Of a DNA stretch of 64,000 bases, positions 18,203 through 47,289 are shown piece after piece. The stretch lies in the IMG/VR virus record IMGVR_UViG_3300005805_000083, positions 2,921-66,920 of that record. One strand, given 5' to 3'. The position numbers and the translations under genes are program-made. Under the pieces are notes generated by a model. The model saw only the letters and a list, made by a program, of their open reading frames with translations. It was not told where the DNA came from and ran no database searches. Position 1 is the first letter of the stretch; every line of letters starts with the position of its first letter. Origin of the DNA: a virus (lineage: Duplodnaviria > Caudoviricetes).

Positions 18203-21200
18203 TTGATGCACGACATTCAATTTAAAGCCAACTCTGGACAGTTTAATATCGACCAAGCCCAGGGCATAGTCGAATGCTTCGTTGCGGGAATCGGCAACAA
18301 AGACTCCGTCGGGGACATCGTTGTTTCTGGTGCCTTTGCCAAGAGCCTTATGCGCCGCAAGCCAAGAGTCGTTTGGGGCCACAATTGGAACGACCCAATC
18401 GGCAAGGTCATCGAAATCTACGAAGTCCCACCCAACGACCCAAGACTTCCACAAAAAATGAAGATGGCTGGAATCGGTGGGCTTTACGCAAAGGTGCAGT
18501 TCAATCTCAATTCCGAGAAGGGCCGCGAGGCATTTGCAAACGTCGCATTTTTTGGCGAAGAGCAAGAATGGTCAATCGGCTACAAGACGCTTGACGCAAT
18601 CTACGACAACTCCAAGCAGGCAAACATTCTTCGTGAAGTCGAACTGTACGAGTTGAGCCCTGTTCTCCACGGCGCAAATCAATTGACTGGAACCATTTCG
18701 GTAAAAAGCGATGAAGAGAAAATGCACATGCACATGGGAATGGGCATGCCCTCTGGGATGATTGCAGTCGCCGAAAAGCCAAAGGGTCCAGTTGACCCAT
18801 TCGAGCAAGGAATTGCACAGCCAGCAGATAGCGACAGAATGGCTGCCCTTGAAAGAGAACTAAGTTCTCGAACCGACGGACCAATCAAGGTCATGAAGGC
18901 AAACGAAAGTTCAGTAGTTTTTCTCAAGCCTGGCAAGGGAATGTTCAGGCTTGGTTACTATTTTGATGGCGAACAGTACATGTTCGGCAAACCAGAAAAA
19001 CTCGGCGTTCCAATGATGATTCAGCCAATGGTTGGTCAACCAAAGCCAGGTCCAAAGCCACAGCGAATTCCAAATTTCCCAAACGTGGAGCAAAAACCGT
19101 CGTCGCCCATTGTCCCCGTTAAGTATGGCAACGATGCGGCAAGCGGATTCTTTTCGCTCGATGACGAAAAATCGCTTTCTGAGCAAGTTGCCGCAACACT
19201 CGATGGAGTTTCCTTGGGGGGCAATCAGGCGGACTTTGTTGAACAACTTTCTGGCATAGTTGGCTCATTGCAGCAAATAATCAGCCAGCACCGCTCAGAG
19301 AAGAGTGAACTATTAATCCAGTGTCCGCCAGAAATGGCTTTTGAAACAAAGCAAGCACTTGACCCAGTGTTTGACTATCACAGAATTGAATCGTATGTCA
19401 CTGAAGATGGGATTGTTATTGCATCTCCGTTGACTGGTGACGCATACGAGGCGGTGGAAAACGCAACCAAATCACTGCTCGGTAGAATCGGCAGAGGCAT
19501 CGGTGGTGGGGGAAAAGTTAGGCGCGGCAGGACCGCGCTAAGCAGAATAGAAGGGGTCCTCGACCCAAGAAGTAGGCGAGACGTCGACGGTGACGGACTC
19601 ATTTTTGATGGCACTTGGATGGAGCAGCCAGACCCAACCAGATTTGTTCCGAGAGTGCAGAGGTCGCTTAGGTCTGGTGGTGGCCCGAACGATGACGACA
19701 ACGATGACGACAAAACACCCAGGAAACCCAAATTTGTACCAAAGAAGGTTTCTGACAAAATCGAAGCGCAAGTCGGGCGCTCAATGAACAAAAAGATAAT
19801 CAGAATGTTCGATGAGTTGATTAGCAGAGGACAAATACCAGAAGACAGCATAGTAAGACAAATAGCAGATGGCTTCAAAAACGCCAAGCGCGAAGGAAGT
19901 CAAACCAGACCAGACATAACACCAGAGCAACTCGAGGCTTTCAAGTCTGAATTTGAAAGGCTGAGACCGCTATTTGCTGAGGTCGGCGCCTTAAAAGAGG
20001 GAGAGAAGGGTGCAAGCCCATTCGATGTTCTTTCCACAATAGTCACAACTGGAAAATTCAGAAGAGTCAACAAGGGAACTGGAAGTGGGAAGGAAAGAGC
20101 AGCAACTGCTGGCATGGAGTCTGCTGCAACTGGCGTGCGTGATGGTGGCTTGGATGTCATAGTTGGAACGAAAATACCGTTGCCAAAACTAAAAAGGACG
20201 GAAGGCAAATTAGACGTAAGTGAATTTATTGAAACTGGTTTGCTTCCAAAAAATTGGGAAGAAATGACTGGTGATGAGCAGGTTCGCTGGATTTCGGAGA
20301 ACGAGGATACTGTTCTCAATGCTGCTGGCAAGCAGCGCCCATGGAGATGGACACAACGTGTTGCTCGGGTATTTGATAGGGCATACGAAAAATCTTTTGA
20401 CGAAGACGAAAGAAAGGAGCGACTGGAAAGAAGGGCACAAAGAGGCGATGTGACAAAACCATCAACGCCACAGGCACCAAAGCCACAGGTACCAAAGCCA
20501 CAGGAACCAAAGCCACAGGCACAAAAGCCACCCAAGCCAAAATCAGACAATAAATTCATGGAAGCCATTTCCGAAACACTGAATCCATTTGTTGAGAGAA
20601 ATAAACAAAAACTTTCACCTGGTGTGGTCGATGCATACAACGACATGGTTTCGCAACTTGATGAGACTTTTGGCGACGAAGACATGAGTCGAGCGGAAAA
20701 GATACAAAAAGCGCAAGAAATCATTGATAAGGCATTGCGTGACATGACCATAACCAGAGACACAAACGAAGGTGACCCAAGCAGTCAATATTTTGAAGAA
20801 ACTACAAAACTAAGAGAACTGAATAAGACCGATAACAATCTATTGAGTGCAGTTCAACTGATGCTTGCAAGACTTTCCGACGAACAAGATGTGGAAGACA
20901 GGGAAGACGACCTTGATGCAGAAAGAGACATGGAGGAGGGGTTGGCGAGAAGGGCAAGAAGAGCGCGCCGCTACAACGTGGAAGACGATGAGGATTTTGC
21001 TGACGGAGCAGAAATAGATTACGCAGAGTATGGGGTCCCAGACCAAGACATTGGGGATGAAGATGACCGCATGTCGCTTCGGTCGTCTGGGCGGCGCGTA
21101 TTGTCACCAAAACAGTTGAGTGTGGCCAGGAATTTCCAATCTGCCCACAGAAGAAGAAAGTCAAACGGAACGCTTCGCTCGTCTGGCAAATCGCCACGAA

Positions 21201-45708: not shown

Positions 45709-47289
45709 ATGAGTTCGGACGCTCCAAAGACCCTTGAGGAAATGGTTGCACGGTACGGGAGAGCACTTGCCGTCATAGATGACGAGACTGGCGAACTCAA
45801 GGTTATGGGGATGGCTGGCGCCCACAGTGTTGACGTCACTGGTAAGCCGAAGAAAGGTACCAAAAAGCCAATAAATGACGGTTTTGACCCAGATGCAGAC
45901 GAGAACAACGAGGACGAAGACGAAGAGCAGTATTCGGAAAAAGAACTAAAGGTCGTCAGATACCTCAACGAAATGGAAGATGACCAATTCCACCTTTTAT
46001 TCCCAGAACAAAAAGACGAGGAGTCCGCTGAAGAGTTGAAGTGGCTCTTTGACACTGGCTTTGCTTTTGCGCGCAGGGCGCTTACTGGCAGAAGAAAGAA
46101 AAAGAAGAAGAGAAGTTACAAAGAAGTCGTCGACGACACAGAAATAAAAGCAGCAAAGAAAAAACTCAAAGACCCGAAGGGCGGTTTGACTGCTGCTGGT
46201 CGCGCCCATTTTAAGAGAACCGAAGGCGCGAACCTCAAGCCTGGAGTAAAGGGCGCTGCAAACACACCAGAGAAAATGCGCCGCAAGGGCTCATTCCTTA
46301 CCCGATTCTTCACAAATCCATCAGGCCCGATGAAAGACGAAAAGGGTCGCCCAACAAGACTTGCCCTTTCCGCAGCGGCATGGGGTGAGCCAGTTCCACA
46401 GAACGCAGACGATGCAGCAGCGCTCGCAGCAAAAGGAAGGCGCATGTTGGAGAGGTATGAAAACTCCAAGAAAGGAAAGAAAGACGCTTGGGATGACGTT
46501 GATGAAAAGACACTTGGCCCAACAATCGGTGGGGGCGGTGGCTCCAGTGACGCGACAAGAGACCATGACGGCGACGGCGTAATCAACGATGGAACGCCCG
46601 ACGAAAAGCCAGCGCCAAAGAAGAATCCCAATAAGTTCCTCGAAAAAAGAACTCGCAAGCATGTTCGACGAAAGTTGCGCGAACAGGGAATCGAGCCAAC
46701 AAGAAGAGGTCAGTCAATACAGGAACACGATGACGGAAGCCTGCACATTTATGATGACCCACGCCCCAAAAAGGAGCGAGATGCGCGCAGGGCTGCTAGA
46801 GAATCTTTCAATCAGGATGAAGACAGAAAGCGCTTTGTCAGAAATCAACTCCGCAAGGCTGGCATGACGCCAACGGCGAAAGGTTCAGAAAGAAGCGACA
46901 AGGAGAGAGCGGCGCGCCGTGCCGCAAGGGCCGAATACGAAAGAAGAGTTGCTGCTGGTGAACCGAGAAAGCCAAAAGCAAGTTCAACCCCACCAAGAAA
47001 GTATCCAGATGGCTATGTTCCTGGCCGTCCAGCCGACAGGTATCCAGAACCAAAGAAGGACACTTCGTGGGAAGACAACGAGGACAGGCGCAACAGGGCC
47101 AAGAGGAAAGAATCTTCGAATGAGCGCGCGGAGAGACAGAGACAAGAGCGCATGCGCCCTGCTGACCGCTCAAGCCAAAGAGCGGAAGACTCACGAAATC
47201 GCGACAAGCGCCCGCGCAAACCAGTTGACAGACTTGGTGGAGCAAATGGCCAACCAAAGAAAAAGACTCCTGGAAGTTGGATTGTCTAA
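45709..47289 (+). CDS. Head-cluster protein with DUF6321-like domain, DHDGDG motif and very basic C-terminus
   Basis: KDPKGGLTAAGRAHF...NLKPG...RKGSFL.RF...GPMKDEKGRPTRLAL; RDHDGDGVINDGT; R/K-rich tail. Confidence 0.65.
   Translation: MSSDAPKTLEEMVARYGRALAVIDDETGELKVMGMAGAHSVDVTGKPKKGTKKPINDGFDPDADENNEDEDEEQYSEKELKVVRYLNEMEDDQFHLLFPEQKDEESAEELKWLFDTGFAFARRALTGRRKKKKKRSYKEVVDDTEIKAAKKKLKDPKGGLTAAGRAHFKRTEGANLKPGVKGAANTPEKMRRKGSFLTRFFTNPSGPMKDEKGRPTRLALSAAAWGEPVPQNADDAAALAAKGRRMLERYENSKKGKKDAWDDVDEKTLGPTIGGGGGSSDATRDHDGDGVINDGTPDEKPAPKKNPNKFLEKRTRKHVRRKLREQGIEPTRRGQSIQEHDDGSLHIYDDPRPKKERDARRAARESFNQDEDRKRFVRNQLRKAGMTPTAKGSERSDKERAARRAARAEYERRVAAGEPRKPKASSTPPRKYPDGYVPGRPADRYPEPKKDTSWEDNEDRRNRAKRKESSNERAERQRQERMRPADRSSQRAEDSRNRDKRPRKPVDRLGGANGQPKKKTPGSWIV

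Follow-up and report, generated by a model that had tools for sequence, protein, structure and literature searches.

Polyvalent proteins are giant multi-domain phage proteins encoded beside head genes, in which zincins, zeta-like kinases, kinases, ADP-ribosyltransferases (ARTs), and DNA-binding domains are combined; packaging and injection are predicted for them, as is, possibly, processing by their own peptidase domains, and rare assemblin-like fusions occur among them (Iyer et al. 2017, PMC5512222). In the Dar system of phage P1 (DarB, DdrB, Hdf, and DarA), very large anti-restriction polyvalent proteins enter the head in order, and some of them are processed (PMC5512222). The internal proteins and Alt of T4 have a capsid targeting sequence and are cut by gp21, phiKZ gp175 and SPN3US gp245 cut ejection proteins (PMC10052503, PMC5694885), and 14 cuts in nine head proteins have been mapped for the SPN3US prohead protease (PMC10052503). 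The locus described here lies at positions 18203 to 47289 of a 64-kb stretch (the window) of IMG/VR virus record IMGVR_UViG_3300005805_000083. It encodes a prohead protease fusion and giant proteins in which unrelated modules are separated by a recurrent peptide, LRSSG (the junction tag), and in which one of two conserved cassettes occurs near the N-terminus. The patterns suggest that these proteins are polyproteins that would be loaded into the capsid and cut at the tags.

The chains of this locus resemble polyvalent proteins in several respects. Several unrelated effector-type domains stand in one chain (p887, p2135, and p2585; proteins are named after their length in residues), the genes lie between those of the portal and the major capsid protein (MCP) with terminase, sheath, and tube genes nearby, and the C-terminal domain of p2585 is homologous to one in ART-PolyVal, WGR, and MuF proteins, a homology that supports membership in the class. 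However, no inter-domain tag, lineage-specific cleavage code, or shared cassette is described in PMC5512222; the assemblin-like domains are C-terminal there, whereas the S78 peptidase domain is N-terminal here, and a search of the window found no MuF domain. Toxins of the MuF-anchored type use Phage_Mu_F as head anchor, whereas no head-module protein of the window matches this family (PF04233) at E ≤0.01. The P1 Dar proteins are products of separate genes with no recurrent tag and no homologous cassette, whereas the modules of the window phage are joined by tags. As a general concept, the arsenal put forward in the original prediction is not new, since polyvalent proteins for which packaging and processing by fused peptidases are predicted are already described in PMC5512222 and motif-directed cleavage by head proteases is established for T4, phiKZ, and SPN3US. 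When the literature was searched for such a tag code, for polyproteins with a capsid protease, and for the cassettes, general precedents were all that came up. Four features were found in no paper: the polyprotein format with re-coded junction tags of 5-7 residues, the N-terminal S78 fusion, the two cassettes, and a co-varying site in the tape measure protein.

Exact LRSSG occurs 15 times in four chains encoded on the plus strand, every time in frame. Two copies are in p1122 (gene at 18203..21571; tags at 21077..21091 and 21173..21187, residues 959 and 991), five in p2135 (23065..29472; tags at 23848..23862, 26587..26601, 28252..28266, 28291..28305, and 28369..28383, residues 262, 1175, 1730, 1743, and 1769), five in p2585 (32630..40387; tags at 34169..34183, 35018..35032, 36674..36688, 37193..37207, and 37532..37546, residues 514, 797, 1349, 1522, and 1635), and three in p887 (40797..43460; tags at 41667..41681, 42219..42233, and 42696..42710, residues 291, 475, and 634). 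With the preceding residue, the tag reads [S/T]-L-R-S-S-G. About ten LRS variants are present in addition: LRSGG twice (p1122 residue 489, 19667..19681, and p2585 residue 1136, 36035..36049), MRSSG (p2585 residue 433, 33926..33940), LRSS[T/E/R], LRSGD, LRSGA, LRSAA, and LRSMS. In 5000 shuffles of the four proteins LRSSG appeared 0.02 times on average and once at most, and LRS, observed 25 times, appeared 3.2 times; the recurrence of LRSSG-like motifs described in the original prediction holds. Chance or low complexity as the origin of the tag is ruled out by the shuffles. A six-frame scan of the window found the sole further LRSSG, together with one LRSGG, in the open reading frame (ORF) of the tape measure protein, and one more LRSGG in a plus frame at 3187, where no gene is assigned. 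Leu, Arg, and Ser codons vary between the copies of the tag, and therefore selection has acted on the peptide and not on a DNA repeat. The same codon differences rule out a DNA repeat or recombination site as its origin.

In the sequence on either side of the tag, R, P, S, T, and N are over-represented, whereas aromatic and aliphatic residues are scarce. In the AlphaFold (AF2) model of p887, for which nine orthologues were used, all five tag sites are in stretches with a predicted local distance difference test (pLDDT) score below 50, between confidently folded domains. The domains recognised by Pfam (a helix-turn-helix (HTH), a zeta kinase, and KTSC) fall between tags, and an 80-residue helical module of p2585 is present in four copies, 49-75% identical, that extend exactly from tag to tag, plus one weak copy. 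Some tags are tandemly redundant, with three within 40 residues in p2135. These observations bear out the earlier claim that the motifs coincide with module boundaries. The wider claim, that one grammar governs six proteins, stands for p1122, p2135, p2585, and p887, but p690 and p526 have no tag.

Whole head modules from 20 related IMG/VR contigs (designated here by G numbers) were compared with that of the window. The order portal, S78 fusion, acidic protein, RCPxG giant with zincin, p153, p220, p690, second giant, p887 family, and MCP is kept in the relatives, and a recurrent tag proper to the lineage was found in 17 of the 21 genomes of this order, window included. It is LRS[SG]G in the window phage, G002, and G007; RL[AT]SGR in G006; GLAS[SR]T in G001; GLAS[TR]S in G020; RGLxSST in G003; RFSSG in G030, with 14 exact copies; PLGSRS in G004, with about 25 in one protease fusion of 3987 residues; GITGAM or I[ST]GxM in G005, G034, and G031; and G[ML]RSx[RK] in G029 and G035. 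Common to these tags is a core of a hydrophobic residue, any residue, and Ser (or Gly). LRSSG, named as the delimiter in the original prediction, is so in the window phage, but elsewhere it is replaced, being one lineage's form of a drifting hydrophobic-x-Ser tag. Tags differ between phages with MCPs that are 91-96% identical. When p887 orthologues are aligned, the five tag sites keep their positions while the letters change in concert between lineages; the site at residue 291 of the window protein, for instance, has the other lineage's tag in its orthologue. Outside the head module, complete genomes have the tag at a single place, in the tape measure protein.

The tag is a real, non-random, and evolutionarily maintained feature. 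Since it is lineage-specific, changes in concert at orthologous sites, is written in differing codons, and co-varies with a tag in the tape measure protein, it is in all likelihood a functional peptide signal read by a trans-acting factor of drifting specificity. The ORF of the S78 fusion ranges from 474 to 4740 residues across the relatives and reaches 3945-4740 residues in G024, G026, G010, G011, G014, G004, and G030, so that in these lineages most cargo is fused to the prohead protease itself. No tag was detectable in G013, G019, G025, and G033. Of these, G019, G025, and G033 have instead 4-5 separate proteins of 570-1350 residues, each with an RCPxG-type cassette near its N-terminus. The cultured actinophages ChisanaKitsune and Cantare likewise showed no recurrent tag, and the only repeat found in them was an unrelated repeat of the tail-fibre type in one protein. 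Cantare and the Chidieberevirus phages also have extra genes from portal to MCP, including those for an RNA ligase, a VIP2-like ART, large proteins, and a protease, but the cargo is there encoded as separate genes.

What the trans-acting factor does with the tag can be judged from position and context. The tags would be best explained as protease cleavage sites, with a probability of about 0.7, because of their linker position and tandem redundancy, the presence of two protease types in the same chains, the use of separate genes by tagless relatives, and the precedent of the head proteases of T4, phiKZ, and SPN3US, which cut many internal proteins. It is improbable that the tags are instead motifs for some other trans factor, such as packaging docks or sites of phosphorylation or ADP-ribosylation, in chains that stay intact: they stand strictly between domains, often in tandem, the chains that have them also contain two protease types, tagless relatives divide like cargo into separate genes, and the lone tape-measure tag is hard to explain as a packaging dock. 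On the other side, concerted evolution by itself demonstrates a trans reader and not the action of that reader, the core has Ser or Thr in all lineages, kinase-type modules are present, and delivery without cutting is described for the N4 virion RNA polymerase (vRNAP) and for several polyvalent proteins (PMC5512222). Split ORFs in the relatives were examined for the scissile bond, but their ends gave no indication of it.

If the tags are cleavage sites, a close parallel is the maturation of T4, phiKZ, and SPN3US heads, where proteins loaded into the prohead are cut at a short consensus, in which P1 is fixed and P3 is hydrophobic or small, and ejected with the DNA, many substrates sharing one motif. 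However, the proteases of these phages are T4-family enzymes with Glu as the residue before the cut, whereas the window protease is of the S78 family and the tags lack Glu. In most cases they remove a propeptide from a single protein, whereas here strings of a dozen unrelated modules are found. Their motif is stable across related phages, whereas the tag differs at 91-96% MCP identity, and no tape-measure site has been reported for them. In eukaryotic RNA viruses, such as potyviruses with their NIa sites, one chain also gives many products, and the short motif varies and co-evolves with the protease. Those polyproteins belong to another realm, depend on other proteases, and supply the replication proteome, whereas accessory cargo of a double-stranded DNA tailed phage is concerned here.

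Which part of the chain would bring it into the head may be indicated by the cassettes. The first cassette, of about 75 residues, consists of K-x-LGRxIG, a Gly/Arg-rich stretch, LDPRxRRDxDGDGxIFDGT, and PDPTR. It is clearly homologous in p1122 (19433..19678, + strand, ending in the tag LRSGG), p2585 (33305..33550, +), and p887 (41439..41684, +, also ending in a tag), as established by alignment, and weaker in p526. The second, RCPxG..FTD..S.C, is common to p2135 (residues ~160-215) and p690 (at residue 139). The shared address cassette of the original prediction corresponds to these two cassette types, both of them real. In a profile search with the first cassette only 67 cluster representatives among 1.84 billion proteins were found, nearly all of 800-3500 residues; in these it lies around residue 130-300 or 400-500. 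It belongs to no Pfam family. The lineage's own tag follows every cassette within 10-20 residues. Judging from these arrangements, which show a single cassette in each chain and tags at the module junctions, the cassette could act as a loading or anchoring element, a proposal given slightly less than an even chance. It is plausible as a loader because it occurs once per chain, is common to the protease fusion, and is on every cargo protein of the tagless relatives, whose separate cassette-bearing proteins are as expected if the cassette addresses the chain and the tags subdivide it.

Two points weigh against the cassette as an address: taken alone (for instance the p887 copy), it is predicted to be disordered, and p1122, p2135, and p2585 have conserved peptides at their C-termini that might just as well serve as loading signals. 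The LGRxIG motif may resemble encapsulin cargo-loading peptides, which are short terminal peptides that bind the inner face of an HK97-fold shell. The T4 capsid targeting sequence is short, N-terminal, and removed at L/I-x-E, whereas the window cassette is internal. The acidic protein p446 (21698..23038, +) is probably a scaffold or core protein, to judge from its sequence, and is a candidate partner of the cassette. It has two zinc-ribbon-like Cys clusters, a long Asp/Glu/Met run, two PepSY-like units (PepSY below cut-off), and a conserved S-[YF]-P-I ... G-R-A motif. Its C-terminal amphipathic helix is invariant, and the protein as a whole is highly conserved in 15 relatives. A third subtype of the RCPxG cassette, W-D-P-S-L ... 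R-R-G-G-W-R-C-P-V-G ... G-G-Q-I-T-D, was observed in 2-3 proteins each of the tagless G019, G025, and G033 (loci L124 and L129-131). Given its DxDGDG-like layout, the DxDGDG and RCPxG types may be homologous.

With a conserved N-terminal carrier and a variable string behind it, the chains can be placed in a scheme of loading, cutting, and release. The proteins are, with good confidence, predicted to be polyvalent polyproteins present in the virion. The head module would supply portal, MCP, the probable scaffold, and five or six internal head proteins with one N-proximal cassette each. Four of these would be polyproteins, in which a conserved N-terminal carrier domain and the cassette precede a variable string of modules on flexible linkers that hold the tags. 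In a first step, the chains would be co-assembled into the procapsid through carrier and cassette, p1122 possibly entering also by way of its prohead protease fusion and its conserved C-terminal tail, which is kept in most relatives. A phage protease would then cut every tag and free the modules inside the head, and at infection the modules would leave with the DNA. The load-then-cleave-then-eject arsenal of the original prediction is consistent with the lineage-specific tags, their concerted change, the linkers, and the tagless relatives, packaging, cleavage, and ejection being its predicted steps.

It is also conceivable that the giant ORFs are an expression strategy, i.e. late polyproteins that are cut in the cytoplasm, with most modules unpackaged and active in the producing cell. 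The tape-measure tag implies a reader able to act outside the capsid, and P1 DdrB is processed before packaging (PMC5512222). However, all tagged chains are encoded between the portal and MCP genes, one of them is fused to the prohead protease, and the cassettes are common with p690 and p526 of the same module. In addition, the zeta kinase, the HTH, and the kinase-like domain, the latter common with MuF- and ART-bearing proteins, are types known from injected polyvalent proteins, and therefore this explanation is regarded as very unlikely.

The main candidate readers of the tag are the S78 protease and a putative zincin protease of the head module itself. Residues 22-174 of p1122 match Peptidase_S78 (PF04586) with 41.3 bits against a cut-off of 21, and the protein also matches the head maturation protease family phrog_80. 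The G-H-N-W and W-S-I-G-Y stretches of the domain are invariant in 15 lineages, and their conserved His and Ser are presumably catalytic. The S78 domain is fused to tagged chains in every lineage, in chains of up to 4740 residues. The loop residue X in R-L-P-X-K-M (Q84 here) is the most variable position of this otherwise near-invariant domain, and it follows the second residue of the tag: of the nine genomes with Arg at that place eight have Q or E, and of the 14 with a small residue there 13 have A, S, G, or P (Fisher p ~1.6e-4, with phylogeny ignored and about three independent Arg lineages). G021 and G023, which were retrieved after the prediction for residue 84 had been made, both agreed with it. 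Because residue 84 tracks the tag, the fused S78 prohead protease is tentatively favoured as the reader, at somewhat less than even odds. Relatives within the S78 clan cut at hydrophobic-x-small (assemblin, V/L/I-x-A|S) or at L/I-x-E| (T4 gp21). By analogy with assemblin and gp21, the tag could be read as a hydrophobic P3, a lineage-specific P2, and Ser as P1.

Several observations weigh against the S78 domain in this role. The domain is 69-96% identical across the relatives and its His and Ser stretches are unchanged, yet the tags are as different as LRSSG and GITGAM. Tagless relatives keep the same protease. The association of residue 84 has exceptions in G027 and G028 and is drawn from few independent lineages, and a search for PDB sequence relatives of the S78 domain, on which the loop could have been placed relative to a subsite, found none. 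Co-variation between the tag and the MCP maturation boundary, which is predicted near residue 100 (..T-R-S-I-G..; x-S-I-G-E), was sought across the relatives, and none was found. Finally, the co-varying tag is also found in the tape measure protein, which is built into tails, away from the procapsid interior. The view that the prohead protease cuts the cargo at its motifs is thus consistent with the findings, but its part as reader is called into question by the near-constant S78 domain and MCP boundary, by the tape-measure tag, and by a zincin as the alternative.

The tape measure gene (3..2831, - strand) lies downstream of the sheath and tube genes and runs off the window. It has LRSSG at 834-848 and, 40 residues later, LRSGG at 711-725, in a linker rich in Ala, Gly, and Pro, and its orthologues have GLASST (G001) and GITGAM (G005) in an equivalent low-complexity linker. 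On this evidence, the tags imply that the tape measure protein may be processed by the same reader, which current models of capsid-confined proteases leave unexplained. The hydrophobic-x-Ser core is also present at the predicted MCP boundary and at a conserved site of p446, R-R-L-x-S-M-G, which shows no co-variation with the tag.

The tags could also be cleavage sites for the gluzincin-like module (HExxHxxQ ... ExxAE) of the RCPxG giant, acting in the head or, after ejection, in the cell that has just been infected. An HExxH module is at the equivalent place of this giant in all 17 tag-bearing genomes examined, whereas no HExxH occurs in the tagless G025 and G033, and in G013 and G019, also tagless, the module is missing and the one HExxH present is at a different place. 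Zincins and giant polyproteins occur together, however, so that their effects are confounded, and in G012 and G008 zincins are accompanied by weak tags only. With an identity of 18-42% across lineages the module evolves fast and could track the tag, with which the S78 domain and the MCP site change out of step; nevertheless, no correlation was seen between the residues adjacent to HExxH and the class of the tag, whereas the S78 loop residue does correlate with it. The P1' pockets of zincins suit bulky hydrophobic residues, and the tag would fit such a pocket: its first residue is bulky and hydrophobic, a small residue precedes it, and basic residues lie upstream. Cutting after ejection would meet the ejected tape measure protein and so explain its tag. 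Iyer et al. (PMC5512222) proposed this same role for the metallopeptidase domains that polyvalent proteins contain.

In p2135, this zincin 1 occupies residues ~390-930 with its HExxH at residue 656, and zincin 2 has its HExxH at residue 1977; both motifs claimed in the original prediction were seen and are conserved in relatives. HExxHxxQ ... G.Y ... ExxAE of zincin 1 is invariant in eight lineages. The module matches no Pfam family, a profile of it retrieved only spurious DsbA rows among PDB sequences, and Foldseek found nothing for its model in the PDB at E ≤0.001. The only large VIA structure match, to the catalytic domain of anthrax lethal factor over 183 residues, has a Z of 7.0, which is within the tool's stated noise range. 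Peptidase activity of the module is thus putative; as the reader it is the main alternative to S78, though a rather unlikely one. Much less likely still is a separate protease, encoded in the ~55% of the genome outside the record or supplied by the host. Neither S78 nor the zincin accounts for all observations, and the record is only ~45% complete; yet no further protease gene was seen within the window, and a host enzyme fails to explain tags that differ between phages with 91-96% identical MCPs, unless their hosts differ.

With S78 as the reader, the observations could be combined into true polyprotein processing with a fast-evolving code. The cassette would load swappable effectors, and S78, with residue 84 lining the P2 pocket, would cut a tag of 5-7 residues whose letters change together at dozens of sites whenever the pocket changes, the tape measure protein being matured too. 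In this complete form the proposal is held to be unlikely, about as much so as a zincin reader.

The modules between the tags are of the kinds expected in polyvalent proteins. In p887, two DUF3721 units are followed by the cassette, a helical module, a sigma-70 region 4 HTH (residues 420-461), small modules, and the zeta-toxin-like kinase (residues 666-806). The kinase, matched by Zeta_toxin (PF06414) with 38.7 bits against a cut-off of 22.3 and with a P-loop, G-x-x-G-x-G-K-S, at residues ~681-688, is as originally proposed, and so is the HTH, which matches Sigma70_r4. The KTSC module of the original prediction does have a match, in p2585, but this is below the Pfam cut-off. Modules beyond those listed before are the two DUF3721 units of p887 and DUF6321 of p526. 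The DUF3721 pair (G-C-x-G-A-H ... W-M-P-C; 40797-41300, +) is the conserved N-terminus of the p887 family, and DUF3721, a Pfam family of unknown function, looks like a carrier domain of the cargo chain. DUF6321 stands alone in p526 and directly after the S78 domain in G005, G029, and G035; this adjacency in three lineages links it, by position, to head assembly.

In p2585, a conserved N-terminal domain and the cassette are followed by about 13 tag-bounded modules and a kinase-like domain at residues ~2366-2585. With a domain of Gordonia phage Phendrix gp066 the latter has 35% identity (E 2e-29), and it also matches proteins with ART-PolyVal, WGR, ADPrib_exo_Tox, and Phage_Mu_F. What was called a HipA-like kinase is, by this homology, a conserved 220-residue C-terminal domain common to actinophage polyvalent proteins and a putative kinase. 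In p1122, the S78 domain is followed by a mid region, the cassette, two modules, and the conserved C-terminal tail. A homologue of p153 was observed fused to a protein of 830-1270 residues with a zincin-2 module in G008, G012, G029, and G035 (loci L109, L111-112, and L119-122). In the window p2135 ends in zincin 2 and p153 is separate, and this arrangement is a gene fission or fusion at a module boundary.

The window covers 64 kb of a 66.9-kb record. At least 283 relatives of the window phage are in IMG/VR, with complete genomes of 137-169 kb among them, and the closest cultured MCPs, at 45% identity, are those of Brevibacterium phage Cantare and the Gordonia Chidieberevirus phages, which are actinophage myoviruses. 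The source is an uncultured, actinophage-related phage of ~140-170 kb, and it is a myovirus because tail sheath and tail tube genes are present; these lie with the terminase gene and the tape measure gene on the minus strand in the left part. The plus strand encodes, from 16 kb, portal, p1122, p446, p2135, p153, p220, p690, p2585, p887, MCP, and p526, in agreement with the gene map and protein lengths given earlier. The portal protein (16082..18106, +) has 674 residues and matches Phage_portal (E 1.9e-51). The small conserved head-module proteins p153 and p220 (29469..30576, +) are found in relatives. The tagless p690 (30561..32633, +) is conserved at 650-690 residues. The MCP (43613..44932, +) has the HK97 fold, a Phage_capsid match (E 4.5e-46), and an N-terminal delta domain of ~100 residues, and p526 (45709..47289, +) consists of DUF6321, the weak cassette copy, and a basic tail.

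Directly after p526, in the same place as in relatives, is the gene of a 287-residue protein (47301-48164, +) that matches phrog_1617 (function unknown; E 1.2e-59). Between the tail and terminase genes (8912-10842, -), a gene like that of 3'-phosphoadenosine-5'-phosphosulfate (PAPS) reductase (phrog_2302, E 1.7e-77) adjoins a gene for a ParB-like nuclease, a pair that recalls modules for DNA modification or anti-defence. One relative, L037 (IMGVR_UViG_3300032218_002812), has in its head module, upstream of the MCP, a gene for a protein with collagen-like G-A-T-G / G-P-x-G repeats.

Proteins delivered by a phage decide the first minutes of infection, and the loading, subdividing, and release of large and diverse cargo are known for only a few model phages. 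The window phage and its relatives offer a rule that can be read from sequence: each chain has a single cassette, and each junction has a tag. This rule predicts domain boundaries in thousands of residues that are otherwise unannotatable. Sister phages with different tags are a natural experiment on what sets the specificity of a protease. If the scheme proposed above is true, it would be a case of natural protease-substrate co-evolution across a whole proteome, and the cassette and tag together would form a portable load-and-release system for capsids of the HK97 type.

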